Source: Anaerolineae bacterium (lineage in GTDB: Bacteria > Chloroflexota > Anaerolineae > JAADDB01). Taken from it: 34,658 nucleotides of DNA. The notes beneath the pieces were generated by a model that was not told the DNA's origin, did not search any database, and worked only from the letters and a program-made list of their open reading frames with translations. The position numbers and the translations under genes are program-made. The DNA lies in the NCBI GenBank assembly GCA_026983525.1, contig JALWHQ010000439.1, positions 1-34,658 of the forward strand, written 5' to 3'. Of this stretch, positions 4,366 to 31,747 are shown piece by piece. Within the stretch, counting starts at the first letter, position 1, and each line of letters opens with the position of its first letter.

Positions 4366-4393
4366 ATGAATGTTCTCCCAAGAGTGGCTATAG

Positions 4394-4450
4394 TCTCTAA
4401 TCTCCAATCTCCAATCTCTAATCTCGAAACTGGAGATTGGAGATTAGAGA
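4394..4450. repeat. Inverted heptamer repeats (TCTCYAA)n / (TTRGAGA)n forming a hairpin
   Basis: tctctaatctccaatctccaatctctaatctc-gaaact-ggagattggagattagaga. Confidence 0.9.
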
Positions 4451-4457
4451 TCAATTT

Positions 4458-5792: not shown

Positions 5793-5961
<169 letters not shown>

Positions 5962-7363: not shown

Positions 7364-8095
7364 TTAATCCCCAGATGGGAAGAGGCCTCTTCGCGCTCGT
7401 AGCATCCGGTAGCCCTGTGCTGTGATAGCCCAACGAGGCCCTTCGTCCGTAGCAACCTCCATCACCGCTCCCCCTGCCTTCAGACGTTCCAGAATTTCGC
7501 GCACCCGCTCCAGGGGAAGGTCCGTGTCCACGGCAAGCCCGCTTAGGGAACGCAAGCGGTAGGGGCTGCCCACCAATGCCTCCAACACCCGACGAACATC
7601 TTCATCCAAAAGCTTCGCTTTTTCGGGTTGCACCGCCGCTACGCCTATTGCCCCCTCCACTCTTGGTTCTGGAGGTCCAATTTCAGGCTCTTTCAACATC
7701 TGAATGTAGCGCTCATGGAGCGTTATGTTCTTTTGTAGCGTTTTGATCTCCTGGTCGTGTTTCTGAAGATCTTGCAACAATCGCTGGGAAACAGAGGAGA
7801 TGAAGCGTTCCGCCCCGAGGCTGGCTGCAAGGGCTATGGCGAAGAGAAGGAAAAGGTTCTCCGACAATGACGTGCTTTTGTTGGGAGATAGTATATTATT
7901 CAACACCTCGCTCCGGGTGAAGGAGAGGAAGAGCGGCACCAGAAACGCGGCCGCCAGAGAGGTCAGGAAGAACCGTAGGAATGTTCTACAGGACAAGGGC
8001 TCCTCTGATCGGGAAGCAGTGCGCACCCATCTTACTAATCCACCAAGTAAGGCGGCACTCCCAAGAACCAAAATAACGTAGGCGGCTTGCCACAT
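7364..8095 (-). CDS. YLATT-like (YEATS-associated three-TM) membrane protein with coiled coil and C-terminal winged HTH
   Basis: GGAGGTG RBS before ATG 8095. TM1 ALLGGLV, TM2 AAAFLVPLFL, TM3 ...AASLGAERFISSVSQRLL match my recollection of the YLATT pattern. C-terminal RSLSGLAVDTDLPLERVREILERL...WAITAQG is wHTH-like. Confidence 0.7.
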   Translation of the reverse strand: MWQAAYVILVLGSAALLGGLVRWVRTASRSEEPLSCRTFLRFFLTSLAAAFLVPLFLSFTRSEVLNNILSPNKSTSLSENLFLLFAIALAASLGAERFISSVSQRLLQDLQKHDQEIKTLQKNITLHERYIQMLKEPEIGPPEPRVEGAIGVAAVQPEKAKLLDEDVRRVLEALVGSPYRLRSLSGLAVDTDLPLERVREILERLKAGGAVMEVATDEGPRWAITAQGYRMLRARRGLFPSGD

Positions 8096-8131: not shown

Positions 8132-8166
8132 GGTATAGCAAATCGACGATAACAAAGTTGAAACAA
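8132..8166 (-). promoter_or_regulatory. Shared promoter/operator box, copy A (degenerate)
   Basis: Plus strand ATAGCA-N10-AACAAAGT-tga-AACAA. On the minus strand this is a direct repeat followed by TGcTATACC, upstream of ATG 8095. Confidence 0.6.
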
Positions 8167-8235
8167 CAGGGGGGTGGCGTACTGACAAGTCCACATATGT
8201 TTACGGATAGTTGTGGAGAAAGGCCGGAGGGGAGG

Positions 8236-8274
8236 CTTTTCTGTGTGCCGGGCTTCACCCGGCGCACAGAAAAG
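8236..8274. terminator. 17-bp stem-loop downstream of the 8393-9925 gene
   Basis: cttttctgtgtgccggg-cttca-cccggcgcacagaaaag. Confidence 0.6.
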
Positions 8275-8392
8275 ATCTTCTCCCCCCGCCCCGTATGGCC
8301 ACCTCCCAAGGATAAAGTTTTATTAGTCAATCAGCAAGAGGGGGAATAGGAGCAAATGTCCAATCCCCCGCTCCAAATAGAAAGGGCAAGGA

Positions 8393-9925
8393 TTATCGAG
8401 ACATAAGCGGTAGAAAAGAGGAAAAGAATGTACACGCCTTTCGCCCACTTAGTTCGTATGTAAAGGAGCGAAGTGGCCAAGAGCCCTCAATCGGCCTTGG
8501 TAACTGTATGTAGGTTGGAGAAGCGGTGGCTTGGAAGGAGATAGTCTCCACTTGGGTAGAAGGGATTTCTCCCGCACAATCGCTGTTGCCATTGGCGTCG
8601 ATTTTGACCACATACATATCTTCCTGTTGAGCGCCAAAACTCTTCGTCCACCCCCCGATGAGAAATCCTCCATCTGATGTCTGCACCACGGCTTTCGCGG
8701 TATCATCTTCAGGACCACCATAGGTTCTGCTCCATACCATGTTACCCGTGGCATCAATCTTCACCAGGTACAGATCCCTCCCTCCTCGGCCAAAACTCTC
8801 TGTGTAACCCGCCAAGACGAAACCACCGTCGGATGTAGGGGCTACAGCGTAGGCCTTCTCATCCTTAGGACCGCCATACGTACGGCTCCACACGAGATTG
8901 CCCGAGGCATCAATTTTGAGCGCGTACATGTCCATTCCCCCCACACCATAACTCTCCGTAGATCCAACAAGGAGAACCCCACCATCAAGGGTGAGCGTTG
9001 CCCCCCAAACTTCCTCGTTCTCCACACCACCATACGTGCGCTTCCACCACATGCCCCCTTTAGGGTAAATCTTTATCACGTAGATATCGCTTTTTCCCGC
9101 ACCAAAACTTTCCGTTTCCCCTATCAGCAAAATTCCCCCATCCCCCATTTGCACAGCCCCCCTCCCCACATCGTTAGATCTGCCACCATAGGTGCGACTC
9201 CACAGGGGATTGAAGGAAGCATCCAAATTGACGACATAAACATCGTATGCGCCAACACTCGTAGAGGAGGTCGTCCCTACCAAAAGGTAGCCTCCAACCC
9301 ATAAAGGGATGACCGTTAGAGCTGCATCGATATACGACCCCCTAAGAACATAGTGACGTTGGACCTCACCGTTAGCCCGGATTTTGAGCACAAACACGTC
9401 ATCCAAAGCATAAAGACCAAAAAGCCCACCTGGCATCTTTGTGGCCCCTGTAATGAGAAACCCCCCATCAGCGGTCTGAATCCCCCGCCAGGGAACATCG
9501 TCTCTATCCCCGCTGTAAGCGCGTGTCCATTGAGGATTACCAAAAGCATCGATTTTTATGGCCACAACGTCCAATCCTCGACCATTTCCGGTCGTGGCTG
9601 CCCCTAAGAGTAAAAAGCCCCCATCTGTCGCGGGGATGATTGAACTTATGCCATCCCGACCGCTTCCCCCAAAGACACGCTGAAAACGCGAGGAAGCAGC
9701 AACGAAGGATGGTTGTTGCCTGGTCGCAAATGGAGACAGCGCATCAACAGCAGAGCCCACACAGTCTACTTCATAGGAAGGGGAAAAAGGGGATACCGGG
9801 TAGAATATCCCAACCAAAACAATGGCAAACATTAACAACACCCGCCTGTAGTTTGATCTTCGCCATCGGCCATGCACCAGGCATCCACTACGGGCCAACA
9901 TGTTCCTCCTCCTATCTTTGTCCAA
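8393..9925 (-). CDS. Secreted 7-repeat beta-propeller protein (WxxTYGG...TxDGGF repeats) with C-terminal FLPLMSR tail; start uncertain (9925, 9901 or 9832)
   Basis: Basic region then a hydrophobic signal/TM segment. Seven ~49-aa repeats, a Cys-X47-Cys segment, then the terminal tail. Confidence 0.85.
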   Translation of the reverse strand: MDKDRRRNMLARSGCLVHGRWRRSNYRRVLLMFAIVLVGIFYPVSPFSPSYEVDCVGSAVDALSPFATRQQPSFVAASSRFQRVFGGSGRDGISSIIPATDGGFLLLGAATTGNGRGLDVVAIKIDAFGNPQWTRAYSGDRDDVPWRGIQTADGGFLITGATKMPGGLFGLYALDDVFVLKIRANGEVQRHYVLRGSYIDAALTVIPLWVGGYLLVGTTSSTSVGAYDVYVVNLDASFNPLWSRTYGGRSNDVGRGAVQMGDGGILLIGETESFGAGKSDIYVIKIYPKGGMWWKRTYGGVENEEVWGATLTLDGGVLLVGSTESYGVGGMDMYALKIDASGNLVWSRTYGGPKDEKAYAVAPTSDGGFVLAGYTESFGRGGRDLYLVKIDATGNMVWSRTYGGPEDDTAKAVVQTSDGGFLIGGWTKSFGAQQEDMYVVKIDANGNSDCAGEIPSTQVETISFQATASPTYIQLPRPIEGSWPLRSFTYELSGRKACTFFSSFLPLMSR

Positions 9926-9976
9926 ATTAAAGATGGGGGGAAGGAACAGTGTCCTCCCCCCTATCCTCCTCCTTAC

Positions 9977-12310
9977 TTAGCGTATGACCGCAGGCAGGTA
10001 ATGCTGTCGCGGCAGCGGATACAGCGCAAAACCAACGTCCACCACCGTGTTGGCCGCCACTTCCACCTCCACCGTCAGAGCGCTCACCACATACACCCCA
10101 CCCGGATACGCCACACTCACGGTGTAACGCCCTGGCATCACATCCACAAACCGGAAATAACCCTGAGCATCAGTCACCGTCTCACGAACCTCCGCCAGTC
10201 GACCCCACCCCAATGCCGACTCCAACCGCACTCTCAAACCAACCACCCCCTCTTCACCCGCATCCCGCTCACCATCTCGATCCACATCCGCCCATACATA
10301 CCCCTCCACGACACCCGTCGCAGGTGTCGCCGTCGCCGTCGCCGTCGGCGTAGGCGTCAACGTGGGCGTCGGGGTCGGCGTCGGCGTCGATGTCGCCGTA
10401 GGTGTCGCCGTCGGCGTCGGCGTAGGTCGCCCCAAGACAAACAGGTTGTCCACATAATACCCAGACGCCGGACTAATGTACTCTATCGTCCCTGCATCTA
10501 TCACCCGCCCAGGCAATGGCGCCTCCGCTCGTACCGATACCCACCCCCCAGGCGGCCGCACCTGCAAGCGATAGCGATAATACCCCTTGTCCTCCCACCA
10601 GAAGAGGAAAAACTGCCCATTCCCATGTGTCCTCGCTTGCTTCAACAAATCCCACCCCGCCGTGCGGGTGTTATACCCCAAAAGGTCGACCCTCACGTCC
10701 CCCATCGGCTTGCCTGACATATCCTCCACACGCCCCCAAAACCGGTAGTTGCGCACCGGTGTCGGGGATGGAGTAACCGTTGGCGTCGGGGTAGCCGTGG
10801 GAGGAGACGTTGGGGTCGGCGTCGGCGTAGGAGTGCCAGGAGCAAACGTTGGCGTCGGCGTCGGAGAGGATGTCGGCGTTGAGGTAGGGGACGGTGTAGG
10901 AGTCGGCGGCCCCACGAAGCATTGTTGAACCGGAAAAGCAAAGGTGGTAGAGACAGAGGGACTGATGCTTGACACTGTGGCATTCGTGGTTATACCGTAA
11001 GCCCCCCCTGGTGTCTGAGTAACGGAGATACTTTGCACGATGGCGTTGGAGGTGCCGGCAAACCCACATCCTGGAATATTCCCATTGGCGTCCAACTTCA
11101 ACACCCACAGATCTCCAGACATAGAGCCCGCCACGATATAACCACCATCGGCTGTCTGTTGGATAGCATTCCCTTCATCCCACCCATTATCTCCGTATGT
11201 TTTCTCCCACTGCACATTACCATTGGCGTCTAATTTCATCACCCAAACATCATACCAACCAGCGCCAAAGGAGTTAGTCCACCCGGATACAATGTAGCCC
11301 CCATCCGATGTCTGTTGGATAGCATAAAGCCTGTCCGTACCGTTACCCCCATAGGTTTTTTGCCATTGCACATTGCCATTAGCATCCAACTTTAACACCC
11401 ACGCGTCGCTAAAACCAGCACCAAAGGACAAAGTCTCTCCAGTCACAATGTAACCGCCATCTATCGTCTGTTGGATAGCGTAGCCGCGATCGTCATCACT
11501 TCCCCCATAGGCCTTTTGCCATTGCACATTGCCATTAGTGTCCAACTTCACTACCAACAGGTCATCACGCCCGGCCCCAAAAGACCGAGTGTATCCTGTC
11601 ACGATGTAACCACCGTCTGTCGTCTGTTGGATAGCATAACCATAATCAGGGCTCGTGCCACCAAAAGTTTTCTCCCATTGGACGTTGCCGTTAGCATCCA
11701 CTTTCAACACCCACACATCGTTAACCCCAAAGGAGTAAGTTCTTCCGACTACAACGTAGCCCCCGTCCGAGGTCTGCTGAACAGCAAGGCCATTTTCTCC
11801 CCCTCCGCCTCCATAAGTCTTCTGCCATTGCACATTGCCGTTGGCGTCCAACTTCAACACCCAGACATCATCATTGCCCGCGCCAAAGGAGTAGGTAGCT
11901 CCAACCACAATATAGCCACCATCCGATGTTTGCTGGATGTCTTGAGCCCAGTCGTGACTGCCTCCGCCATAAGCCCTTTGCCATTGCACATTGCCGTTAG
12001 CGTCCAACTTCAACACCCAAAAATCCCGATTACCAGCCCCAAAGGATTTGGTATACCCAGCAACGATATAACCGCCATCCGATGTTTGTCGAATTGCATA
12101 AGCCGTTTCAGTGGAGCCTCCTCCATACGATTTCGCCCATGCGGCACCGGCCATGCCTAAACCCTGTCGACTTATCGCGCCCAAACTGAGGTGCTCCGTT
12201 CCTGCCCGCGCAGCAGGCATCGTCCCCGTCACCAACATCAGCAATAGAAGCAACGCTCCCGGCACGAACTGCCACCGTAAAACACGTCGCTTCCGTACTT
12301 CCCCATTCAT
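9977..12310 (-). CDS. Secreted 7-repeat beta-propeller protein with PT linkers, a carboxypeptidase-regulatory-like domain, an SdrD-B/Cna-B-like domain and a YLPAVIR tail
   Basis: GGAGGTG RBS. Signal peptide ending PAARA. Seven WxKxYGG...QQTxDGGYIVxG...DxWVLKLDxNGN repeats. GVVEGYVWADVDRDGERDAGEEG...TDAQGYFRFVDVMPGRYTV. Confidence 0.9.
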   Translation of the reverse strand: MNGEVRKRRVLRWQFVPGALLLLLMLVTGTMPAARAGTEHLSLGAISRQGLGMAGAAWAKSYGGGSTETAYAIRQTSDGGYIVAGYTKSFGAGNRDFWVLKLDANGNVQWQRAYGGGSHDWAQDIQQTSDGGYIVVGATYSFGAGNDDVWVLKLDANGNVQWQKTYGGGGGENGLAVQQTSDGGYVVVGRTYSFGVNDVWVLKVDANGNVQWEKTFGGTSPDYGYAIQQTTDGGYIVTGYTRSFGAGRDDLLVVKLDTNGNVQWQKAYGGSDDDRGYAIQQTIDGGYIVTGETLSFGAGFSDAWVLKLDANGNVQWQKTYGGNGTDRLYAIQQTSDGGYIVSGWTNSFGAGWYDVWVMKLDANGNVQWEKTYGDNGWDEGNAIQQTADGGYIVAGSMSGDLWVLKLDANGNIPGCGFAGTSNAIVQSISVTQTPGGAYGITTNATVSSISPSVSTTFAFPVQQCFVGPPTPTPSPTSTPTSSPTPTPTFAPGTPTPTPTPTSPPTATPTPTVTPSPTPVRNYRFWGRVEDMSGKPMGDVRVDLLGYNTRTAGWDLLKQARTHGNGQFFLFWWEDKGYYRYRLQVRPPGGWVSVRAEAPLPGRVIDAGTIEYISPASGYYVDNLFVLGRPTPTPTATPTATSTPTPTPTPTLTPTPTATATATPATGVVEGYVWADVDRDGERDAGEEGVVGLRVRLESALGWGRLAEVRETVTDAQGYFRFVDVMPGRYTVSVAYPGGVYVVSALTVEVEVAANTVVDVGFALYPLPRQHYLPAVIR

Positions 12311-12427
12311 GGCTCACCTCCTAACGTGTGTGAAGTGCTGAACAGTATTCACAAAATCACACCGACTTGGCAGCAGACCTTTAATGGCCACAGAGCGCAT
12401 GAAGGGTTCATCTTCCATTGATAAAAA

Positions 12428-12463
12428 GACATAGCAGATCGGTAGGAACAAAGTGTGAACAAA
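12428..12463 (-). promoter_or_regulatory. Shared promoter/operator box, copy B
   Basis: Plus strand ATAGCA-gatcggta-GGAACAAAGTGTGAACAAA. The 19-mer is identical to copy C. Confidence 0.8.
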
Positions 12464-12609
12464 AGGCGGATATTAGGTATTGATTGGGGATTGGAGCCTA
12501 TGGGGAGGATACTTCGGAAGTTCTCGTGGATATGGGATATGGACTCGGATCCACCCCTTGATGATCGTTTGCCGGACTCACCGTTGGGTGACCACAGGGC
12601 GTTCTTTAT

Positions 12610-12645
12610 GTAGGGGGTGGGAGCGCTGCGCTGGCGCTCCCACCC
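12610..12645. repeat. GTAG-headed GC-rich palindrome (REP-like hairpin) after the 12656 stop
   Basis: gtag-g-gggtgggagcgc-tgcgctg-gcgctcccaccc, a perfect 12-bp stem. Confidence 0.55.
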
Positions 12646-12655
12646 GTGGGCTCTG

Positions 12656-14446
12656 CTACTGCATTACCGTGGGTAGGAACTGCCTCCGCGATAGCGGGTA
12701 CAGCGCAAAATCAACGTCCACCACCGTGTTGGCTGCCACATTTGCCTCCACCGTCAAGTCGCTCACCGCGTACACGCCCCCCGGATAGATCAGGCTCACG
12801 GTATAACGGCCGGGAGGCACGTTCGTGAAGCGATAGAAACCCTGGGCATTCGTGACCGCCTCCCTGACCTGAGCCTGGGATGCTTGGGCCGGCACCAACC
12901 GCACCGTCAAGCCGGCCAATCCTCCCTCACCGGCATCCCGTTCACCGTTCCGGTTCACGTCGGCCCACACGTGTCCTTGTACAGTGCCCGTGGTGGGCGT
13001 GGGGGTCGGTGTGGGCGTGGCTGCAATACATCGGACCCTGACAACAGCCGCAGGTGTGGCGACCGTCGCATTCGTGCTCCACACGCGGATGGAGGCCCAA
13101 CCTACTCCCATAGAAAGACGATCTCTTCGAACGTTGCTATTCCGCACTTCCGGAGTACTCCTGGCAAAGAGGTTGCATCCCGGAATGTCCCCCTGAGCAT
13201 TCATCCTGAACACCAGCATGTCTCCCCCGTCCACACCGGCCACAACGTAGTCGCCATTTTCGGTTTGCAGTACACTTTCTCCCCACTCGCCGCCTGGAGT
13301 CCCATATGTTTTCTGCCACTGAACACGGCCCTCCGGGGTCAACTTCAGCATCCAGACATCAATATTACCGGCACCGAAGGACCAGGTTTCTCCTACCAGA
13401 AGGTATCCCCCATCCCGTGTTTGCAGGACGTCGTAGAAAACATCGTATTCCCCTCCCCCAAACGTCTTCTCCCACTCTATGTCGCCGTTGGGTCTCAGTT
13501 TGACCACCCACGCATCGAAATAGGCACCGGCCGTCTTTGTTTCTCCGGCCAGGATAAACCCACCGTCGGTGGTCTGTTGTACGGCGTAGGCTTTGGCATC
13601 CCTACCTCGACTATACACCTGACTCCACTGGACGCGACCGTTGGCGTCCAATTTCATCGCCCAGAAATCGAACGTAGATTTCAGGGACGAACCAGCCAGA
13701 ATGTAACCACCGTCATCCGTTCCCTGAAAGTCGTTAACCGATATCGCTCTCCCTGCTTCTCCATAAGTTCTCTGCCATCGGAGAATCCCATTCCTGTCCA
13801 ATTTGAACAGCCAGGCATTGCCGTAATACTTACCAGCGATCAAGTAGCTACCATCACTCATCTCTTGGACAGCAGCGGCTTTATCGCCGCCCGCGTGCCC
13901 AAGGGTCGTTTGCCACTCGATGTTGCCGTTGGGTCCCAGTTTGACCACCCACGCATCTGACGCGCCGACACTGAATGACCAGGTAGAACCAGCCAGGATA
14001 TAGCCACCGTCCGTCGTCTGCTGAATAGAATGGACCTCTTCATCCGACGGGCCTCCATACGTCTTTTGCCACTCAATCTCTCCTTCGGGGTCCAGTTTGA
14101 TGACCCAGATGTCTTGATTTCTGGTTTCGCGGTACCACATGTGGCCGGCCAAAATGTACCCCCCGTCCGCGGTCTGTTGGATGGTATGAGCTTGTCCATA
14201 TTGCCCCTTCGTGCTGCTCTCATAACTCTTTGCCCATAGGGAACTTCCTGTGGCGCGGTTCATCACACAGGGCGTGTTGAAACTATCGCTCCCGGCAATG
14301 TATGAGATACTCGCCGTAACCTTACTTCCGCCCTCTGCTTGGGCCTGGGGGATAAACCCTGCTAACAAAATCCACACCAACAGAACCGTTCCCAAAACTA
14401 ACCGCCAACGCATCAAACCCAGGTTGTGGTCTCTCACTTCCATCAT
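12656..14446 (-). CDS. Secreted 7-repeat beta-propeller protein with PT linker, SdrD-B-like domain and FLPTVMQ tail
   Basis: AAGGAGGTG RBS. Signal peptide ending PQAQA. Seven repeats, GDIPGC...RC, then GTVQGHVWADVNRNGERDAGEGG. Confidence 0.9.
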   Translation of the reverse strand: MMEVRDHNLGLMRWRLVLGTVLLVWILLAGFIPQAQAEGGSKVTASISYIAGSDSFNTPCVMNRATGSSLWAKSYESSTKGQYGQAHTIQQTADGGYILAGHMWYRETRNQDIWVIKLDPEGEIEWQKTYGGPSDEEVHSIQQTTDGGYILAGSTWSFSVGASDAWVVKLGPNGNIEWQTTLGHAGGDKAAAVQEMSDGSYLIAGKYYGNAWLFKLDRNGILRWQRTYGEAGRAISVNDFQGTDDGGYILAGSSLKSTFDFWAMKLDANGRVQWSQVYSRGRDAKAYAVQQTTDGGFILAGETKTAGAYFDAWVVKLRPNGDIEWEKTFGGGEYDVFYDVLQTRDGGYLLVGETWSFGAGNIDVWMLKLTPEGRVQWQKTYGTPGGEWGESVLQTENGDYVVAGVDGGDMLVFRMNAQGDIPGCNLFARSTPEVRNSNVRRDRLSMGVGWASIRVWSTNATVATPAAVVRVRCIAATPTPTPTPTTGTVQGHVWADVNRNGERDAGEGGLAGLTVRLVPAQASQAQVREAVTNAQGFYRFTNVPPGRYTVSLIYPGGVYAVSDLTVEANVAANTVVDVDFALYPLSRRQFLPTVMQ

Positions 14447-14526
14447 CCACCTCCTTCATGATCTTCTCGCTCCCCGCCTGAGCAGGCAATGGGACACATT
14501 GGGAAACGGCCGGAACAACGAGCAAA

Positions 14527-14568
14527 CCTTGGGGTGACGGGAACGTCCTCTTGCCCGCCACCCCAAGG
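14527..14568 (-). terminator. Stem-loop just after the RCC1-repeat gene
   Basis: Minus strand ccttggggtggcggg-N12-cccgtcaccccaagg followed by tttg. Confidence 0.5.
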
Positions 14569-14575
14569 AGAACGT

Positions 14576-17233
14576 TCACCACAGCATGATAGGCAGCCAG
14601 TGGTGTTTCAGCGGCCGCGGAGAAACGTTGGGAATGGAAAGACGGAAGCCATCCCCCTCGCGCGGCCGCAAGGGGGCGCGGTTGTCCACACGCAACACAG
14701 TCTGAGCGCGGTATGTGCCCGCCCGCACTTCGATCAGGTACTCGCCCGGGGAGAAGGGCACGGACAGGAAGAGCACCATTTCGCCCGAAGGCTTGAAGCG
14801 GAGGCCATTCCTTACTACTCGGCCGTTGACCAGCAACTGGGCTGCCGCGTTGGGCGGGAAGTTCCAGGCCCACAGGGTGAACCAGCTACCGGGACGACCG
14901 GTGCGATAGTTGAGCCGTACTTCGGGAATGGTCTGGTTCAACACGGGCACGGGCTTGCGCTGGAGCGCGCCCCGCGCCCGTCCCAATTGCCCATAACCAT
15001 CCCATCCCCAGCAGAGCACGGGCGCGGTAGTGGCAGTGGTCACTAACGCACACGTGTAATCCTGCCCGGCCGTTACCGCCGTCACCCCCGCAGTAAGGTC
15101 TGGAACGGGCACCGGCCGCGGGCTGTTGCCCCAATCACCGTTACCCAATTGCCCCAAACCATTGGCTCCCCAACACCGGAGTGCACCATTCCCCAACAAA
15201 GCGCAGGTGTGCCGCGCGCCCGCGGCCACAGCCGTGACACTGCCGAGTCCTACCACGTTGACAGGCGCCCGTCGGGAAATAGTTGTTCCATCGCCCAACT
15301 GGCCGTAGGCATTATCGCCCCAACAGCGCACCTTGCCGTTGGTCAGCACCGCGCAGGTGTGAACAGTTCCCGCAGTAATGGATTTTGCTCGGCCGCCCAA
15401 GTTCACGACCTGCACCGGCCTATTGCGGGACGTTTGAGTATTATCGCCCAGTTGCCCGCGCGAGTTATCTCCCCAGCAACGCACAGAACCGTCCTGGAGC
15501 AGCGCGCAAGTGTGATCGTTCCCTGCAGCAAGGGCCACGGCTTTCCCACCCAGGTTGACCACCCGCACAGGGGTGGAACTGTTCTGCGTGGTGCCGTTGC
15601 CCAGTTGTCCCGTCCAGTTAATTCCCCAGCAGCGCACCGAGCCATCGCGCAGGAGTGCGCAGGTGTGAGCATTGCCCGCGACCACCGCGGTAGCCTGTCC
15701 CCCCAGGTTCCTGACCCGCACGGGCGTGTGTCGCTCTTGGGTGGTGCCATCCCCTAATTGGCCGGCAAAATTGCTGCCCCAGCAGAACACCGCGCCATCT
15801 TCCCGCACCGCGCATGTGTGCCCCCATCCTGCGGTCACCGCGATGGCCCGGCCGCCGAGGTTCACCACGCGTGCGGCCCGAAATCGAGCCCGCGTGGTTC
15901 CATCACCCAGTTGGCCGGATGTGTTGCTCCCCCAACAGCGCAGGGATCCATCCTCCAGGAGGGCGCAAGCGTGGAACCCGCCGGCAGCCACGGCCACAGC
16001 CTGTCGCGGCAATCCGAGGACGTGGCGGGGCATACTACTGGCCGCCGGAGAACTGTTCCCGAGTTGACCAAACGTATTGCTTCCCCAACAGCGCGCGGTG
16101 CGGTCTTCCAACACGGCACAGGCGTGGTCGCCGCCGGCAGCGATCTGCCGCACGCGGTCGCGCAACCCCAGGACGCTGACCGGTCGGTTCCTATCGGTCG
16201 TGGACGCGTTGCCCAGTTGGCCGCTGCCGTTCCGCCCCCAACACCGCACGCGGCCTGCTTCCAGAAGAGCACAGGTGAAGGAACCGCCTACGGCGAGGGC
16301 TTTGGCCTTGCCGCCCAGGTGAACGACGGACACCGGGGTCAGCCGCGTGGACCACGTTCCATCCCCCAGTTGACCGGCAAAATTGCTGCCCCAGCAGCGC
16401 ACGCTGCCGTTCTTCAACAATGCGCAGGTGTGGAAACTGCCAGCGCCAATGGCCACGGCCTGTCCGCCCAAGTTGGCGACCGGTCGCGGGGTCGTTTGTT
16501 GGGCCAACGAGCCAATTCCCAGTTGCCCGAATCGGTTGTTCCCCCAGCAGCGTGCGGAACCGTTCTGTAAGAGAGCACACGTGTGGATGTAGCCTGCAGT
16601 AATCGCAACGGCTCGCCCACCCAGGTTGGCGACGCGCACAGGTCGAGAGCGATTGCGCGTGGTACCGTCCCCCAACTGGCCGTACCAGTTATTCCCCCAA
16701 CAACGAACCGAGCCATCTTGGAGCAGGGCACATGTGTGGGTGGCCCCCGCGGCCAGGGCGATGGCTTTCCCGCCCAGGTTGATCACCCGCACAGGCCGGG
16801 GGCTGTCACGCGTGGTGCCATCCCCCAACTGGCCGTCCCCGTTCGCGCCCCAACAGCGCACTGCCCCACCTTGCAGGAGGGCGCACGCGTGGGATCCTCC
16901 GGCAACCACGGCAACGGCCACACCCCCCAAGTTGATAACGGGAGTGGGAACATGGCTGTCAATAGTCGTACCGTTGCCCAACTGCCCTTTCGTATTCTTC
17001 CCCCAGCAGTACACCCTTCCTCCTTGCACCAGGGCGCAGGTGAAATCAATACCTCCCGCGATATGCTGGATGTTGGGCAAAGGGGAAGTCGCGGTCAAAG
17101 CCGTTCGTTGGGTAATAGGCCGGGGTGTACCAATCAACACGTCAGCCTTTACTGGAAGCGGCGCGAGAACGAACAAACTGTTCACGAGAAGGAAGATATG
17201 GAGCCACGTCAGTACGGATTTTGTTCTGAGCAT
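14576..17233 (-). CDS. Secreted RCC1-repeat (RCC1/BLIP-II-like) protein with 14 repeats, a C-terminal beta-sandwich-like domain and a WLPIMLW tail
   Basis: GGAGG RBS before ATG 17233. Signal peptide ending PVKA. I count 14 AGxxHTCAL..GxVRCWGxNxxGQLGxG repeats. Confidence 0.92.
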   Translation of the reverse strand: MLRTKSVLTWLHIFLLVNSLFVLAPLPVKADVLIGTPRPITQRTALTATSPLPNIQHIAGGIDFTCALVQGGRVYCWGKNTKGQLGNGTTIDSHVPTPVINLGGVAVAVVAGGSHACALLQGGAVRCWGANGDGQLGDGTTRDSPRPVRVINLGGKAIALAAGATHTCALLQDGSVRCWGNNWYGQLGDGTTRNRSRPVRVANLGGRAVAITAGYIHTCALLQNGSARCWGNNRFGQLGIGSLAQQTTPRPVANLGGQAVAIGAGSFHTCALLKNGSVRCWGSNFAGQLGDGTWSTRLTPVSVVHLGGKAKALAVGGSFTCALLEAGRVRCWGRNGSGQLGNASTTDRNRPVSVLGLRDRVRQIAAGGDHACAVLEDRTARCWGSNTFGQLGNSSPAASSMPRHVLGLPRQAVAVAAGGFHACALLEDGSLRCWGSNTSGQLGDGTTRARFRAARVVNLGGRAIAVTAGWGHTCAVREDGAVFCWGSNFAGQLGDGTTQERHTPVRVRNLGGQATAVVAGNAHTCALLRDGSVRCWGINWTGQLGNGTTQNSSTPVRVVNLGGKAVALAAGNDHTCALLQDGSVRCWGDNSRGQLGDNTQTSRNRPVQVVNLGGRAKSITAGTVHTCAVLTNGKVRCWGDNAYGQLGDGTTISRRAPVNVVGLGSVTAVAAGARHTCALLGNGALRCWGANGLGQLGNGDWGNSPRPVPVPDLTAGVTAVTAGQDYTCALVTTATTAPVLCWGWDGYGQLGRARGALQRKPVPVLNQTIPEVRLNYRTGRPGSWFTLWAWNFPPNAAAQLLVNGRVVRNGLRFKPSGEMVLFLSVPFSPGEYLIEVRAGTYRAQTVLRVDNRAPLRPREGDGFRLSIPNVSPRPLKHHWLPIMLW

Positions 17234-17289
17234 AGCGTTAGCCTCCGGGTTGGGTATTAGAGATTGGGAAATTAGGGAATCGGATACAG

Positions 17290-17331
17290 GGGCCGAAAAA
17301 CCGACGTCGGGCATCTCCGATTTTTCGGCCC
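17290..17331. repeat. Intergenic palindrome beside degenerate heptamer repeats (17250-17285)
   Basis: gggccgaaaaa ... tttttcggccc (11-bp stem) enclosing the palindrome ccgacgtcgg. Confidence 0.6.
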
Positions 17332-17340
17332 TGGGACACT

Positions 17341-18198
17341 TCAACGCACGGCTGCAGGCATGTACTGGCTATAGGGCAGCGGATATATGGGAAATGGCAC
17401 CTCCGTTCGCCGCCCAGCCACCACCTCAATCTCCTGGCTTAACACCCGCACCGGGTATACCCCGCCCGGGTAGACCAGGTTGACGGTGTAGCGGCCGGGT
17501 GAGACATCGGTGAAGCGGAAGAAGCCCTGGGCGTCGGTGACCGTCTGCCGAGTCTGGCCCAGGCGTCCTTGCGCCTGGGCTGGCACCAGTCGCACCGTGA
17601 GGCCCGCCAGCCCTTTTTCATCGAGGTCGCGCTCGGCGTCTCGGTCCGTGTCTGCCCACACGTAACCCTGCACCGTGCCTGTGGTGGGCGTGGGGGTGGG
17701 AGGCGGAGCGCCTACGAAGCACTGCTCCCTGGGGGAAACGTTGGTGGTGATAACCGTGGCGGCGCTGTCTTCCATTGTGGCACTGGTGCTCGCAACCGAG
17801 GCGTTCGTCGTTGCTCCGGTAACGGTGGTGCCTCGCACGGTGACGTCTGGCGCGCGGACAAGCCCACATCCTGGAATGTCGCCGTTGGCGTCTAACTTCA
17901 ACACCCACATATCCTCCCAGCCAGCGCCGAAGGATTCGGTCTTCCCAACCACAATGTAGCCCCCATCTGTCGTCTGTTGAACGTCATAGGCTATATCAAG
18001 GGCGGATCCCCCATACCTCTTCACCCATGCAATACTCGCCGCGCTCAACTCTATGGCCCTTCTTCCCTCACTCGGTATCACAGAAAGCCCCGCTCGCACG
18101 GGCAGGGAGGACCCTACCACCAAAACCAGCCCCAGAACGGTTACGCTCAACGCCAGGAGCGGTCTCTTCAGGTGTTGATGCCACACAACCTCTCTCAT
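17341..18198 (-). CDS. Secreted paralogue with only one propeller repeat, the Cys-X48-Cys segment, an SdrD-B-like domain and a YMPAAVR tail
   Basis: Signal peptide ending PVRA. A single WVKRYGG...WVLKLDANG unit is joined directly to DIPGC. ATGA overlap with the upstream gene. Confidence 0.85.
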   Translation of the reverse strand: MREVVWHQHLKRPLLALSVTVLGLVLVVGSSLPVRAGLSVIPSEGRRAIELSAASIAWVKRYGGSALDIAYDVQQTTDGGYIVVGKTESFGAGWEDMWVLKLDANGDIPGCGLVRAPDVTVRGTTVTGATTNASVASTSATMEDSAATVITTNVSPREQCFVGAPPPTPTPTTGTVQGYVWADTDRDAERDLDEKGLAGLTVRLVPAQAQGRLGQTRQTVTDAQGFFRFTDVSPGRYTVNLVYPGGVYPVRVLSQEIEVVAGRRTEVPFPIYPLPYSQYMPAAVR

Positions 18199-18710
18199 GG
18201 CATCCCCCTTTCACTTTCCACATCTACACGGAACGACTTGTTTTTGTTTTTGTCAAGCCTTTGGGCAGTACCCCGGCTTACCGTAGAAGGTGGGAAAAAG
18301 CGACGTTTGTCCTGCTCATATGGTTCGCCGGTGGCAATAAAGTGCTCGATGAAGGCAAAGGTGTGGTCGGGCACGTGGGCTTGCAGCCACATGCGGTACG
18401 CGGCCGTAAAAAAGAGGGCCCACAACAAAAACAAGCCCATCGTGCCGGCCAACGCTCTGTCCACCCATCGGCCAAAGCGAATGTCCACGGCCAACGTATC
18501 CTCTGTGGTGGAGAGGGTGACGTTCAGCGTGGATGAGATGCCCAAAACGGACCGCCACACTTCAGCCTGCCGCACTCGAATTACCCTCCGGTTCTCTGCA
18601 GGCTCCACCACGCGGGGGGCGTATCCTCCTGCTTGATACCAGGCGACAAGCGCATGGACGAGTCGGGGCACGTCCACCCCGGCAGATTTGTAAGTGCGAC
18701 GATGCGTCAT
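18195..18710 (-). CDS. Hypothetical membrane-associated protein (171 aa)
   Basis: ATGA overlaps at both ends (18707-18710 and 18195-18198). WRSVLGISSTLNV...GRWVDRA...LFLLWAL resembles a family I recall as often carrying a zinc ribbon, which is absent here. Confidence 0.75.
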   Translation of the reverse strand: MTHRRTYKSAGVDVPRLVHALVAWYQAGGYAPRVVEPAENRRVIRVRQAEVWRSVLGISSTLNVTLSTTEDTLAVDIRFGRWVDRALAGTMGLFLLWALFFTAAYRMWLQAHVPDHTFAFIEHFIATGEPYEQDKRRFFPPSTVSRGTAQRLDKNKNKSFRVDVESERGMP

Positions 18711-19021
18711 GCGTCCGCTCCCGTATCCTGAGTCCCGGGTGGCAGGGATTGATGGTTGGCTTGCTGGTACAAGAAGGCGCTTTGCAGCGCGTGCAGGACG
18801 GTCAGTTCGACCAGAAGTTGGGTGACCAACGCGTGTTGGTCCTCGCTCAGTTGCCTCTCGACCTGATACATGATATCGGCCACGCGCCTGGCCTGCGCCC
18901 GAATATCCTCCAGGCGAACGTCCCCCTCTTTCAGCGCGTGTTCCCACATTTCGATGCGTTCGAGGTAGGACTGAAAAACGTGCTCGTCGCCCTCGTCGCT
19001 GAACCAGCTAGCGAATGTCAT
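18707..19021 (-). CDS. Hypothetical acidic helical protein (104 aa), first gene of the operon
   Basis: GAAGGA RBS. Directly downstream of promoter box C. Stop overlaps the next start. Confidence 0.75.
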   Translation of the reverse strand: MTFASWFSDEGDEHVFQSYLERIEMWEHALKEGDVRLEDIRAQARRVADIMYQVERQLSEDQHALVTQLLVELTVLHALQSAFLYQQANHQSLPPGTQDTGADA

Positions 19022-19053
19022 GTTCCTTCTCGCCCACGATGACGTTCAGGGCG

Positions 19054-19089
19054 AATATAGCAAGGAGGTGGGAACAAAGTGTGAACAAA
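19054..19089 (-). promoter_or_regulatory. Shared promoter/operator box, copy C
   Basis: Minus strand TTTGTTC-acac-TTTGTTC-ccacctcct-TGcTATATT. The heptamers sit at about -42..-36 and -31..-25. Confidence 0.8.
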
Positions 19090-19098
19090 GGGGAATGA

Positions 19099-19243
19099 GG
19101 TATTGGGTATTGGGTATTGGGTATCGGGTATCGGGTATCGGAGATTGGAGATTGAGGGTTGGAGGATAGTCCTGGCGGAGAGGGGAATTACTCCTCGATT
19201 CGATCACGCACGACGCAAGACGTACGACGCACAACGCACGACG
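19099..19243. repeat. Heptamer tandem repeats (GGGTATY)n, (GGAGATT)n and (CGCACGA)n
   Basis: ggtattgggtattgggtattgggtatcgggtatcgggtatcgggagattggagattg; cacgcacgacgcaagacgtacgacgcacaacgcacgacg. Confidence 0.9.
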
Positions 19244-19244
19244 T

Positions 19245-22200
19245 TCAAATCATCTCCCCCCGGCGCAGGCGTTCGGCCAGCCATTCGGTGAGCGCGGAGG
19301 GGCCCACGTCCAACTCCCGTGCCAGCGCAGCGCGCGCCTCCTCGTACACGGCCAGGGCTTGCGCACGTTCCCCCAGGCGGGCAAGGGCCCGCATCTTGAC
19401 CTGATAGGCGGCCTCCACCCAGGGTGCCACAGCCAGCACGCGGTCGGCCCACAAAATGGCCTGGCGGAACTCGCCCCCTTCCAGGTATCGCCGCGCCACG
19501 AAGAGACACCCCTCCTGGTATAGGCGTTGCCAGCGTTCGTCACGCTCTACCCACCAGGTCTCATAGGGGGCAACACTAACGGGCGGGGCCCATGCTTCCA
19601 GGGCTTGCACACACGCCTCAAGGGGTGGCGGCGCGTCCGGGCGGTCTTCCTCCTCCAAGGCGTTCTGAACGGTCCGCTCGAACACTTCCACGTCCACCCA
19701 CACCCGATCTTCCGGGTCAAAGGTGAACACGTCCCAAGTGGTAGAGAGATAGCGAATCGGCCCCTTAGCGCGCATGTAGGGTTCCAGCACCTGCCGCAGC
19801 CAACTGAGCAGGCGGCGGAGGGTCTGCGCGGCTTGTTGGGGATTCTGGTCCGGCCAGAGGTCCGCGAGGATGCGATCGCGGGTCAGGGGCTGGCCGCGAT
19901 GGAGCACGAAGTACTGGAAGAGCCGCACGACAGCCGGCCGGGGCCAGGCGCTGTCCGGGATCTCCGTGTCCCCACGCCAGACGCGAAACGCGCCCATGAA
20001 CTGGACTCTGAGCGGGGGCGGGGGCAGGGCTTCCAGTCGTTTGAGGGCCTGTTCCATGGCCGCGCGCACGTGCGCGTTCTTTTCCCGCTTCAGGCCGCGT
20101 TGTAACGCGGGCATGGCCTCCTCCCGTTGGGTAGCCTGTAACGCCCACGCGGCCCGCCGTCGCACCGCGGCATCCGGCGCCAGAAGGAGATCCTCCAGGC
20201 CCGCCACGCGGCCGATGCGTCCCAGCGCCTCGATGACCATCTCTTCCTCGTAACCCAGAAGCAAGGCCACACGCCAAACCTGGAACCCCAACTCCGGGTC
20301 GCGGTCCGTCAGCACGGGGCGCAAACGGGGGAAGCGGCGTAAGACGTGAAGGAGCGCGCGCAGGTGGCGTCGTGCCTCCGGACGCCCTTCCCGATGGCAG
20401 CGCCACGCGAGCAGACCGCGCAGGCGGATGAGGCTCGGCAGCGCGCGCGCCTGGATGAGGAAGCGCGTGTCCGGGTGCAGGGGCGGTGGAAGCGGGTAGG
20501 CTTCGGTGGCCGCAATGTCGCGCTCCAGCGCGACCAGGGCGCGTGGGAAAGGCGCGTCCCAGGGTTGGTTCAGGGCCTCCTCAGCAATGCGCACGGCCTC
20601 CTCGGGGCGTCCCTGGCGCCGGGCCAGCCAGGCCCGCAATTGCGCCAGGCAAAGGTGACGGTCATTGCGTCCGGCAACGTGCGCTTCTGCCTGGGCGAGC
20701 GCCTTCTCGGCGTTGTCCCACTCGCCTATTCCGATGTGGTACAGCGCCCAGTAATAGAAGCGCCAGAAATTGCTGGTCGTATCGACCGTTTCCACTTCTT
20801 TCACAAGCCCTTCGAGTTCTGTCAGCACTTTTCTGATCCGTTCCCATGCCCCCGTTTCCGCGTACAAGGCCACCCACTGCTCCAGGTAAATCATGCGGGG
20901 CGATGGCCTCTCCTGGTAGTATGACCTATCCTGCTCCAGCAGCGCTTCAGCTTCCTCTAAGTACCCCATAGGCGCGAGGACGTTGGCGGCGAGGTTACCC
21001 CGTTGGTAGAGAGCGATGGTTTCGTGCCCCATCTTTTCGGCGATGGGGATAGCCGCGCGGTAGAAGTATCGCGCTCTGGGAAAGTTTCCGAGCAAAGCGT
21101 AAACGTTGCTGAGAAGAACGGCTGCACGAAACCGGTATTTGAGATCCGTGGCCCCATCCCATAAACGGTGGCCGTATTCCAGGGCTTTTTTGTACCGGCC
21201 TGTCAGAAAGCAGACCTGGCCAAGCGCGTGATAAGCCTGGCAGGTGGCTTCTGGGTCTCCACGGGCCTCCAGAAGCCGTGCTCCCTCGATGACCAATTGC
21301 CATCCTTCTTCCTGCGCTCCCGATGAGCAGAGTTCCGCGGCCAACCGCGTCAGTAGAATCGGATGTCTCTCCCGGTAGGGTTTTGGCAGGCCGAGGATCC
21401 AGCGGCGGTAGGTATAGACGCGATTGGCATCCCAGATGACTTCCATAGGCATGTCGAGGAGCAGCCGCGTGGCCTCGTCCCACAGTTCGTCGGTGAGAGC
21501 CTGTTCGATGGCCAGGTCGTAGTCGTTGCGCCGGTGGAACCAGGTGACGATGTGGCGGGCGATGGTTTTTCGATCGGATGTCTGCGCGCGGAGAAAGGCG
21601 CGAAACAGTTCATGGTAACGCCAATATCCCTCCCGGGTGCCTGGGTCCACAAAGAGACGCCGTCTCGCCACTTCTTGCCAGATGTGTCGCGCTTTTTCCT
21701 CCGCGTCGGGCATGCCCATAGCCTGCCACAGGTGTATAGCCATGTCCGGGGAAAACTGAAGGGCCACGCCCGTCAATTGCAAAAAAGCGCGCACATCCTG
21801 GGGCAACGTTTCCCACAGGCGTTGAAAGATGTGGGTGTGCAGGTACGCCTCCAGGGACGTTTCGATGTGCTCGGGAGCCGTGTACAGGTGGGCGATGTGA
21901 ACCAGGGCGGCGATGGCGAGGGGCCAGCCGCCTGTGCGCGCGTGCCAGGCCCGACTCTGCTCTGCCGTGTAGCCGATAGGGCGGAGCCAGCGGGCCACTT
22001 CCTCGGGCGTCAAAGCCAGATCGCGCTCGGTGAGGTAGGTGGTAGGGAGGGCGTGCAGGGCGTGGGCCAGTGGCGTGGGCAACCAGCGACCGCTGAGGAC
22101 CCACCGCTCGGGCGCGGCGCGAATGTGCTGGACGAGCCAGTCCAGGGCCTGGTCCGCGCCTTCCAGAACGTGAACGTCGTCCAGCAGAATGGGCGACGAG

Positions 22201-22451
22201 GAAGCGAGATGCGGTTGCAAGCGCGCTTCCAGGTAGCCCACATCCTGGTCGGCGAGGGTGAGGGGGACGACCACGCTGCCCGGGATCTGGGCGGCCAGCG
22301 CGTGCAGGAGGGTGGTCTTACCGTAGCCGGCCGCGGCAATGACGGCCAGCGGGCCACGCGCGAGGTGATGGAGTGCACGACGTACAAGGTGCAGACGCTC
22401 GAAGTAACCGAATTGCTGAACAACTGGCCCATCCGCGGTGTCACTTTGCAT
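19245..22451 (-). CDS. Large transcriptional activator: MalT-like STAND NTPase, TPR array, HEAT-like repeat, and SARP-type wHTH/BTAD domain (start approximate)
   Basis: Walker A AAAGYGKTT and Walker B ILLDDVH. TGGWPLAI and WRYHELFRAFL are MalT-like. LRVQFMGAFRV...LTRDRILADLWPD...LRQVLEP...WVDVEVFE and PWVEAAYQVKMR...ELDVGPS are SARP/BTAD-like. Confidence 0.9.
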   Translation of the reverse strand: MQSDTADGPVVQQFGYFERLHLVRRALHHLARGPLAVIAAAGYGKTTLLHALAAQIPGSVVVPLTLADQDVGYLEARLQPHLASSSPILLDDVHVLEGADQALDWLVQHIRAAPERWVLSGRWLPTPLAHALHALPTTYLTERDLALTPEEVARWLRPIGYTAEQSRAWHARTGGWPLAIAALVHIAHLYTAPEHIETSLEAYLHTHIFQRLWETLPQDVRAFLQLTGVALQFSPDMAIHLWQAMGMPDAEEKARHIWQEVARRRLFVDPGTREGYWRYHELFRAFLRAQTSDRKTIARHIVTWFHRRNDYDLAIEQALTDELWDEATRLLLDMPMEVIWDANRVYTYRRWILGLPKPYRERHPILLTRLAAELCSSGAQEEGWQLVIEGARLLEARGDPEATCQAYHALGQVCFLTGRYKKALEYGHRLWDGATDLKYRFRAAVLLSNVYALLGNFPRARYFYRAAIPIAEKMGHETIALYQRGNLAANVLAPMGYLEEAEALLEQDRSYYQERPSPRMIYLEQWVALYAETGAWERIRKVLTELEGLVKEVETVDTTSNFWRFYYWALYHIGIGEWDNAEKALAQAEAHVAGRNDRHLCLAQLRAWLARRQGRPEEAVRIAEEALNQPWDAPFPRALVALERDIAATEAYPLPPPLHPDTRFLIQARALPSLIRLRGLLAWRCHREGRPEARRHLRALLHVLRRFPRLRPVLTDRDPELGFQVWRVALLLGYEEEMVIEALGRIGRVAGLEDLLLAPDAAVRRRAAWALQATQREEAMPALQRGLKREKNAHVRAAMEQALKRLEALPPPPLRVQFMGAFRVWRGDTEIPDSAWPRPAVVRLFQYFVLHRGQPLTRDRILADLWPDQNPQQAAQTLRRLLSWLRQVLEPYMRAKGPIRYLSTTWDVFTFDPEDRVWVDVEVFERTVQNALEEEDRPDAPPPLEACVQALEAWAPPVSVAPYETWWVERDERWQRLYQEGCLFVARRYLEGGEFRQAILWADRVLAVAPWVEAAYQVKMRALARLGERAQALAVYEEARAALARELDVGPSALTEWLAERLRRGEMI

Positions 22452-24144: not shown

Positions 24145-24199
24145 GACGATGGACGATAGACCATGGCTAACCATCGTCTATGGTCCATCGTCCATCGTC
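24145..24199. repeat. Inverted heptamer repeats (GACGATG)n / (CATCGTC)n
   Basis: gacgatggacgatagaccatgg-ctaa-ccatcgtctatggtccatcgtccatcgtc. Confidence 0.9.
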
Positions 24200-31369: not shown

Positions 31370-31747
31370 TCACGTGATGTGCGGTTCCTGTCGTTCGTAG
31401 ACCCAACGCACAATGTCCTTGACCTCGCGCGCGAACCGACTGTGCTCTTGCAGTCGGTCCCACTCCTCCTCCGTGTACACCAGCACATCCGCGGGGACGG
31501 GCAAGTCCTCAGAAGGCCAGCGCGCCGCACGGCGCTCGAAGGGCACATCCGTGTGTTCGACAATGACGACGATGTCCATGTCACTGCCGACGCCCCAATC
31601 CCCGCGCGCGTAAGACCCAAAGTACCCCACCCGCACCACTTCGGGATGCTGTTCGGCCAGCGCCCTGGCCCACTCGCGAACCGCGGCGTCCACCTCATCC
31701 GCGGTGGGCCAAGTAATCACGGACGAATTCAAGGATCTCACGGGCAT
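31370..31747 (-). CDS. Minimal nucleotidyltransferase (MNT) antitoxin
   Basis: GYFGSYARGDWGVGSDMDIVV (GS-x10-DxD). Overlaps the end of the HEPN gene. Confidence 0.9.
   Translation of the reverse strand: MPVRSLNSSVITWPTADEVDAAVREWARALAEQHPEVVRVGYFGSYARGDWGVGSDMDIVVIVEHTDVPFERRAARWPSEDLPVPADVLVYTEEEWDRLQEHSRFAREVKDIVRWVYERQEPHIT

Follow-up and report, generated by a model that had tools for sequence, protein, structure and literature searches.

Three tandem-repeat promoter boxes in an Anaerolineae genome as candidate targets of an AfsR-like regulator with a C-terminal SARP module

Introduction

Which protein, if any, activates promoters in which a short tandem repeat occupies the place of the -35 element? 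The question is raised by a 34,658-nucleotide stretch of the Anaerolineae contig JALWHQ010000439.1 (the window), in which three similar blocks, here called sites A, B and C, lie upstream of genes for predicted secreted and membrane proteins and close to the gene of a regulator with a BTAD domain, which we call REG. A first-pass annotation of this DNA had described the blocks as promoter boxes and proposed that they are operators of the adjacent BTAD protein, in the manner of the SARP family of activators. Following up on this proposal, we found that the boxes are unique to the cluster within their genome, co-occur with REG orthologues across related genomes, keep their place relative to the REG gene, and stand beside a protein whose C-terminal module is homologous to that of AfsR, all of which speaks for the proposed operators. 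We consider it likely, from these comparisons of sequence, that the three boxes are REG-dependent, AfsR-like, activator-dependent promoters of one small regulon.

Results

Architecture of the three sites

On the plus strand, we recovered the pattern ATAGCA-N10-AACAAAGT-N3-AACAA with exact spacing at 8135-8166 (site A), 12431-12462 (B) and 19057-19088 (C), with a perfect 19-mer, GGAACAAAGTGTGAACAAA, common to copies B and C, in both respects as first annotated. All genes between 7364 and 22583 are encoded on the minus strand, and in that reading direction each site opens with two 11-bp direct repeats that form a 22-bp box, continues with 8 bp of spacer whose last three bases are TGC, and closes with a hexamer that begins with TAT. 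The boxes of the window follow the consensus nTTGTTCACAs / nTTGTTCCCAs, in a register that was our choice (11-mers counted from the first T of TTTGTTC). The repeat had been given as TTTGTTC-N4-TTTGTTC, which holds for B and C but not for site A, where TTGTT alone recurs; site A retains the form TTGTT-N6-TTGTT-N10-TGNTA, which has 3 matches genome-wide at <=1 mismatch. The sites do lie upstream of the start codons at 8095, 12310 and 19021, as had been claimed: the start codons are found 36-117 nt 3' of the sites and are preceded by purine-rich, Shine-Dalgarno-like sequences, the predicted leader of promoter B running for about 110 nt to the ATG at 12310. A canonical -35 element is missing, again in line with the annotation, as no TTGACA-like hexamer was found 16-18 nt 5' of the -10 at any of the three sites, and a sigma-70 consensus scan called none of them (0/3). 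TGC stands directly 5' of the hexamer in 3/3 window sites, which at the level of sequence makes them extended -10 promoters.

Confinement of the box to the cluster

Consensus-with-mismatch scans of the whole draft genome (G000; 3,278,912 bases in 503 contigs) returned the full ATAGCA-type pattern three times, whether 0, 1, 2 or 3 mismatches were allowed, with every match inside the window; the expectation that the motif would not be common genome-wide thus held. For TTTGTT-N5-TTTGTT at <=1 mismatch, we counted 3 window matches against 0.09 expected, and 0/100 shuffles reached 3. Repeat finding placed the three sites in one 36-nt family (D13), the sole one of 16 families with every copy outside open reading frames (ORFs). 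As the similarity covers 36 nt only and the flanks differ, the sites are not leftovers of a longer duplication.

The regulator REG

The REG gene immediately precedes box C, ~155 nt separating its stop codon from the box, and REG is the sole window protein with a DNA-binding Pfam domain. In order from the N terminus, it contains a P-loop (Walker A GYGKTT), TPR repeats, HEAT repeats, a Trans_reg_C domain (aa 841-906) and a BTAD domain (aa 919-1063). The Trans_reg_C match scored 31.3 bits against a Pfam cut-off of 26.2, identifying an OmpR-type winged helix, and the BTAD match directly after it scored 64.2 bits against a cut-off of 22.1. The C-terminal 260 residues aligned with AfsR (chain 8hvr_I; phmmer, E=1e-8) over 250 residues, that is, over the whole SARP module. 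An NCBIfam MalT match was weak (E=2.5e-10, 39 bits against an equivalog cut-off of 537). We found no Response_reg match in REG even at E<=5, indicating that it is not PhoB-type, and no LuxR-type helix-turn-helix (HTH), its output being a winged helix-turn-helix (wHTH) plus BTAD, indicating that it is not a member of the MalT/LAL group either.

The open frame of REG could encode 1112 aa but would then overlap a terminator-like hairpin of the tRNA-Lys gene (22602-22571); from this hairpin and from orthologues that align from about residue 17 of the 1068-aa form, we place the start at ATG 22451. No box was found upstream of REG, and a reading in which it regulates itself was dropped. The perfect consensus promoter at 22734-22706 (minus strand; TTGACA-17-TATAAT), considered as the REG promoter, was assigned instead to tRNA-Lys(CTT) at 22692-22617, which it precedes; hence, the organism does use canonical promoters. 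This tRNA gene lies between coaBC and REG and is followed by a GC-rich hairpin with a T-rich tail.

The named relatives of REG are Ardenticatenaceae-, Anaerolineae- and Thermoflexus-labelled records, all Chloroflexota. Its orthologous group is small, with 16 clusters at >=39% identity among 67 proteins at E<=1e-10 (8000 candidates scored). Distant homologues have been automatically named "BTAD domain-containing putative transcriptional regulator" or, at JGI, "MalT/DNA-binding SARP family transcriptional activator", and the REG domain order is thus already present in databases under automatic names. PADLOC gave 0 matches for REG, the YLATT protein, p104, the one-transmembrane (one-TM) protein and three secreted proteins (see Table 1 for these genes), whereupon a role of the cluster in defence was rejected.

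Distribution of the box across related genomes

Some other protein that binds in tandem might activate the boxes, such as a response regulator of the OmpR/PhoB type encoded elsewhere, with REG as a mere neighbour: PhoB pho boxes have this geometry too, with an 11-bp direct repeat in place of the -35 element, and physical binding by REG is itself a prediction. The distribution of the box, however, points to REG. We surveyed 41 relatives and a sample of 301 genomes of the same class, with the reversed pattern as a control and, for the 301, E<=1e-80 as the definition of a REG orthologue. Among the 41 relatives, REG orthologues, full-length or contig-cut, are present in G001, G002, G007, G008 and G021, and the core repeat TGTTCACANNNTGTTC occurs in G000, G001, G002, G008 and G021 only, all of them REG-positive, with 2 matches for the reversed control. 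Among the 301 genomes, 18 have a REG orthologue and 25 have TGTTCACANNNTGTTC. The repeat was found in 13 of the 18 REG-positive genomes, with 31 matches in total, compared with a background level in the 283 others, 12 of which hold it, each once; the reversed control gave 13 single matches in the 301. All genomes with at least two matches (10/10) are REG-positive. As the genomes are kin, these co-occurrence counts are given without a statistical test.

The box also keeps its place. The exact pattern lies 20-160 nt 3' of the REG stop codon, on the same strand, in G000, G001, G021, G107, G143, G192 and G224, and at <=2 mismatches it follows the REG stop at six of the seven named orthologue loci for which downstream sequence is available. 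Such boxes directly after the REG stop are found in at least three GTDB families, and the box is retained in genomes whose REG orthologue shows 42-66% identity. The box has another conserved location, in front of the p104 and one-TM gene pair, in four Thermoflexus-type genomes, which suggests that this pair, accompanying REG and the box across families, forms the conserved core of the regulon. Upon aligning the REG-to-p104 spacers of G000, G001 and two metagenome-assembled genomes labelled Ardenticatenaceae, we found GTTCACACTTTGTTCC and the -10 positions to be invariant, with diverging flanks; apart from the repeat and a TAnnnT hexamer at a fixed distance from it, no intergenic bases are conserved. 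When 22 sites were placed in register, they read nTTGTTCACAs followed by nTTGTTC(C/A)CAs, 8 bp and a hexamer; conservation covers positions 2-10 of each 11-mer, and at its fixed distance the hexamer starts with TA in 15/22 sites, with A as its second base in 20/22. One site in G002 has TGGTATAAT, shifted by one base. Among the bearers of orthologous boxes is an isolate of Thermoflexus.

Recognition residues, repeat words and paralogues

In AfsR, residues W74, P79, Q81, R87, S91 and R94 touch the DNA (backbone or van der Waals contacts), and T88 and R92 contact bases (PMC10936776). When aligned with 8hvr_I, REG is identical to AfsR at all of the former; K95 is replaced by Q, S46 and Q48 also differ, and the base-contacting positions T88/R92 are occupied by R/W. 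This R/W pair is invariant in 9 orthologues that go with the TTGTTC(A/C)CA word and varies in 6 SARP paralogues of G000. The orthologue of G286 (36% identical) has S/R at both positions, and directly after its stop codon the repeat reads TGTCAACAATT and TGTGAACAACC, followed by TGCTACACT. The G073 orthologue has T/K there, with GCGTTTGC twice at an 11-bp period. In G101, a perfect 9-bp repeat, TGCGAACAA-N2-TGCGAACAA (G101:C73:125-144, locus L080), lies upstream of the orthologue (36% identity), ~48 nt from its aligned start, which may reflect autoregulation in that lineage.

Among 11 paralogues with the REG domain order in other genomes, five have a repeat of their own plus a TAnnnT hexamer just after the stop codon, as judged by a 9-mer repeat matching at >=8/9 positions with period 11 or 12 and TAnnnT 14-22 nt beyond the first base of the second repeat. 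In comparison, stops of ORFs of >=300 aa in G000 gave 14/2024, and the opposite strand 13/2024. The private words of the paralogues are mostly single-copy in their own genomes, so that no regulons could be defined for them. No repeated period-11 heptamers were found near six other SARP genes of G000, which carry the usual N-terminal module and are thus not comparable with REG. These six are large SARP-like proteins in which the SARP module is followed by a P-loop (contigs C24, C99, C434, C41, C171 and C417), indicating that SARP-type regulators are numerous in this Chloroflexota lineage, and many SARP-type matches per genome occur across the class.

Hence, given that the box tracks REG orthologues and sits directly behind their genes, that the repeat word shifts with the recognition helix (as in G286), that paralogues of the same order hold private repeats at the same place, and that no second DNA-binding Pfam domain was found in the window, activation of the boxes by another protein appears unlikely.

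Activation, repression or an alternative sigma factor

REG could also bind the boxes and repress. The promoters would then be constitutive, of the TGn-extended -10 type, and REG would occlude polymerase at -42 to -21. Extended -10 promoters do without a -35 element, so that the geometry alone would be compatible with repression as well as activation, and the box covers a region that RNA polymerase must occupy. Proteins that bind over the -35 are mostly repressors, according to PMC7040171. By contrast, the characterised SARP/BTAD proteins in the reviewed literature are all activators that use exactly this position. The -10 region argues against repression, too. While the extended -10 that had been annotated is present at all window sites, TGn precedes the hexamer in 9/10 sites of the closer relatives versus 2/12 sites of Thermoflexus-type genomes and G008 (counted by eye), indicating that the extended -10 is clade-specific, unlike the repeat and its spacing from the -10, which hold generally. 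With the TG missing at most Thermoflexus-type sites and several hexamers there being poor (CAAGCT, CGAGAT), unaided firing is not to be expected at these sites. We therefore regard repression by REG as decidedly unlikely.

If, instead, an alternative sigma factor recognised the block as its -35/-10 sequence and needed no activator, one would account for its conservation along with the downstream hexamer, and the plus-strand words GGAAC and TGAAC do resemble ECF -35 words. These words lie on the strand opposite to the genes, however, and the TTGTTC words of the coding strand stand 12 and 23 nt from the -10 rather than 16-18 nt. As the block is moreover a direct repeat with a period of exactly one helical turn, its occurrence follows the orthologues of one regulator, and the window contains no sigma factor gene, we find this explanation very improbable. 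A sigma-54 promoter was discarded by eye: the TTGCT of site C lacks a TGGCAC 5 nt before it, and site B reads CTGCT.

It is hardly credible, finally, that the likeness of the boxes is functionless and arose by chance or as a remnant of paralogous genes duplicated with their upstream DNA, for although the cluster does contain paralogous propeller/SdrD_B genes with repeated coding DNA, the likeness ends after 36 nt, the first genes behind the boxes (p104, the 777-aa protein gene p777 and YLATT) are non-paralogous, the expected number of chance matches is far below 1, and the box is conserved where the regulator is just 42-66% identical.

Predicted target genes

The features of the locus are listed in Table 1. 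The large target proteins have signal-peptide-like N-termini, and in operon C this holds for four of the five proteins. Two ORFs at the head of this operon, of 104 and 250 aa, overlap by 241 nt in different frames (18195-19021, minus strand). In alignments with Thermoflexus orthologues, the match does not begin before residue 76 of the 250-aa ORF, so that the true start of the one-TM protein is probably Met79 of that ORF; its orthologue in G021 ends in a zinc ribbon.

Table 1. Features of the putative regulon, with coordinates in the window; start sites are predicted, and box sequences are given as first / second repeat
Feature	Position	Strand	Remarks
Box A	8146..8167	-	GTTGTTTCAAC / TTTGTTATCGT; weakest copy
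Promoter A	8132..8145	-	spacer cgatttgc; -10 hexamer TATACC (8132-8137); predicted transcription start site (TSS) ~8125
Box B	12442..12463	-	TTTGTTCACAC / TTTGTTCCTAC
Promoter B	12428..12441	-	spacer cgatctgc; -10 hexamer TATGTC (12428-12433); predicted TSS ~12421
Box C	19068..19089	-	TTTGTTCACAC / TTTGTTCCCAC; predicted binding site of two SARP modules
Promoter C	19054..19067	-	spacer ctccttgc (TG at -15/-14); -10 hexamer TATATT (19054-19059); predicted TSS ~19047
REG, predicted activator	19245..22451	-	1068 aa from ATG 22451; open frame back to 22583
Operon C	12656..19021	-	five genes behind box C; operon predicted from spacing
p104	18707-19021	-	104-aa soluble protein; first gene of operon C
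One-TM protein	18195-18713	-	~172 aa; inside 250-aa ORF
SdrD_B protein	17341-18198	-	285 aa; operon C
RCC1-repeat protein	14576-17344	-	922 aa; operon C
Propeller/SdrD_B protein	12656-14446	-	596 aa; operon C
Operon B	8393..12310	-	two genes behind box B
DUF5122 propeller/SdrD_B protein (p777)	9977-12310	-	777 aa; operon B
SBBP/delta-60-repeat propeller protein	8393-9925	-	510 aa; operon B
Gene A, membrane protein	7364..8095	-	243 aa; YLATT domain, three TM segments; behind box A

Repeats at the DNA level build several of these genes (10326-10426 and 10778-10864; 11187-12104; 15144-16933). Propeller blades of 156 nt recur in the genes of the 777-, 596-, 510- and 285-aa proteins, RCC1 blades measure 153 nt, and a GTCGGC-type hexamer array of period 6 lies inside the 777-aa gene.

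In the relatives, genes behind boxes encode a 1457-aa beta-helix/peptidase C25 protein, a 1338-aa BNR/sortilin protein followed by an RCC1 protein, a 1296-aa beta-helix/DUF7619 protein, an unknown protein followed by a PrsW protease, and a CpaB/Tad-type operon; judging from these predicted domains, the targets are again a cell-surface and secreted set.

Discussion

Overall, the observations fit best with REG as the activator of the three boxes, yet several of them weigh against this reading. The -10 hexamers of promoters A (TATACC) and B (TATGTC) do not end in T. Site A is a weak copy known from one genome alone, and a search with its YLATT target returned nothing in G001, G002, G007, G008 and G021, so that conservation lends no support to this site. 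The related genomes are non-independent samples. The exact pattern is missing from 5/18 REG-positive genomes, namely G007, whose orthologue is cut by a contig end, and G073, G101, G211 and G286, whose orthologues are more distant (36-42% identity); in G211, no repeat was seen downstream of the orthologue. In G002 (locus L036), the exception among the named loci, the 10 kb after REG contain no box, and its three boxes lie on contigs other than that of REG, which would also suit an activator encoded elsewhere. The sole match in G008 precedes queA and has no -10-like hexamer; this match, like another without such a hexamer in G021 (at 1164721), may be due to chance. Regarding the paralogues, 6/11 showed no repeat, and the repeat-plus-hexamer criterion was fixed only after the first paralogue repeats had been seen, for which reason the result of 5/11 calls for independent repetition.

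We suggest that two C-terminal SARP modules of REG would bind side by side and head to tail, one on each 11-bp repeat. The 22-bp box would thereby take the place of the missing -35 element and, if the TSS lies 7 nt past the hexamer, span about -42 to -21. The modules would recruit RNA polymerase holoenzyme to the -10 (TGn-extended in this genome) or adapt it, as AfsR does on the afs box, while the N-terminal P-loop/TPR/HEAT part would probably gate this output by signal and nucleotide binding. The regulon would comprise secreted beta-propeller, RCC1 and SdrD_B proteins, the p104 and one-TM pair, and the YLATT membrane protein. In this proposal, we infer binding, activation over repression, the TSSs, the arrangement of the dimer and the role of the sensor from the comparisons described above.

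A broader picture, which we would put as evenly balanced between true and false, is that Anaerolineae (Chloroflexota) hold a family of large SARPs of "inverted" build, in which a MalT-like P-loop/TPR sensor comes first and the SARP module closes the chain. Each of these might be wired to a private promoter immediately after its own gene, where a member-specific 11-bp tandem repeat replaces the -35, and the positions equivalent to T88/R92 might co-vary with the repeat word as a readable specificity code. The REG branch would then be the first SARP-type regulon outside actinomycetes, governing secreted beta-propeller, beta-helix and RCC1 surface proteins, not antibiotics. A literature search for SARP or BTAD regulators in Chloroflexi, by titles and abstract starts and with incomplete coverage, found none.

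What the locus offers is a concrete candidate pair of regulator and operator in an uncultured member of the Chloroflexota, with a reversed domain order and a non-antibiotic regulon, and a prediction that is exact to the base for three boxes, their register and three start sites. If binding by REG is true, the "sigma adaptation" of the AfsR type extends to another phylum, natural variants of box and recognition helix become available for decoding the DNA specificity of SARPs, and there is a first handle on when these filamentous bacteria make large secreted propeller and RCC1 proteins.

Other features of the window and genome

Intergenic heptanucleotide tandem arrays lie at 2070-2219, 2843-2911, 4394-4451, 19099-19154, 19206-19243, 24145-24204, 32841-32902 and 34581-34642, with units such as GGTATCG, GGTATTG, CCATCGT and ACGCACG. 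Genome-wide, 960/2521 arrays detected with TRF have period 7, and about a dozen units make up most of these; the heptamer STRR repeats of heterocystous cyanobacteria are similar. The arrays beside boxes B and C were considered as a part of the promoters and rejected, being a genome-wide intergenic feature that is absent from the copy of promoter C in G001, a genome of the same genus that lacks the array beside box C.

An S-adenosylmethionine (SAM) riboswitch at 5793-5961 (minus strand; Rfam RF00162, 86 bits) lies upstream of genes for a Cys/Met-metabolism pyridoxal phosphate (PLP) enzyme (4458-5699) and an aspartate kinase (2926-4407). Further along, a 757-aa protein (32301-34574, minus strand) combines a complete MgsA/WRNIP-type AAA+ ATPase (AAA, AAA_assoc_2, MgsA_C) with a C-terminal Methyltransf_11 match, and its neighbours are a HEPN-domain gene (31695-32144) and a 388-aa gene without a Pfam match.

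Comparison with known systems

Like the STAND activators MalT and GutR, REG begins with a P-loop NTPase, continues with a helical-repeat sensor and ends in a DNA-binding output. It differs in that this output is an OmpR-type wHTH plus BTAD rather than a LuxR-type HTH, and in its candidate operator, a tandem 11-bp repeat at the -35; MalT boxes are arranged differently. PhoB comes closer in operator geometry, as its winged helices bind head to tail on repeats of 11-bp period that replace the -35. In contrast to PhoB, REG has a BTAD domain and no receiver match, and its control would pass through the P-loop/TPR sensor, not through phosphorylation by a histidine kinase.

The SARP-like reading of the first-pass annotation holds for the operator geometry and the module, whereas REG itself falls outside the described SARP classes. 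As described in PMC10972967 and PMC10936776, small, medium and large SARPs have an N-terminal module with any extra domains C-terminal to it; the module of REG is C-terminal, behind the P-loop, TPR and HEAT parts. SARPs are found exclusively in actinomycetes, as stated in PMC7040171. REG departs from the description of SARPs as regulators of actinomycete secondary-metabolite clusters as well, its neighbours being genes for secreted repeat proteins, with no biosynthetic genes. The rule for SARP operators, by which repeats of 11-bp (or 22-bp) period overlap the -35 and the 3' repeat lies 8 bp from the -10 (PMC10936776), is matched in sequence by two 11-bp repeats, 8 bp and a hexamer at 3/3 window sites, and by the same distance at related sites. 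The small SARPs ActII-ORF4, DnrI and RedD likewise have repeats one helical turn apart over the -35, at a fixed short distance to the -10, and they are cluster-situated regulators with few local targets, as REG appears to be. They differ from it in consisting of the N-terminal SARP module alone (~300 aa) and in belonging to actinomycete antibiotic clusters, and some of their sites have three repeats where REG boxes have two.

The closest comparison is with AfsR of Streptomyces coelicolor, a large SARP of known structure (PDB 8HVR, 8K60, 8JKE), and its afs box, which consists of 11+11 bp, spans -40 to -19, and is contacted at the first 8 bp of each repeat (PMC10936776). The two proteins are homologous in wHTH and BTAD over ~250 residues, both have a P-loop NTPase and TPR repeats, and in both cases two 11-bp repeats form a 22-bp box over a poor -35 position. 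The SARP module of AfsR is inhibited by the NOD and TPR domains of the same protein, an inhibition that ATP binding lifts. The order of domains differs, AfsR being SARP-NOD-TPR and REG P-loop-TPR-HEAT-SARP, and the NTPase part of REG is weakly MalT-like, not NB-ARC. The base-contacting residues, T88/R92 in AfsR and R/W in REG, differ together with the repeat word. REG, finally, belongs to Chloroflexota rather than Actinomycetota, and its predicted targets are secreted repeat proteins, whereas the target of AfsR is a regulator of an antibiotic pathway.

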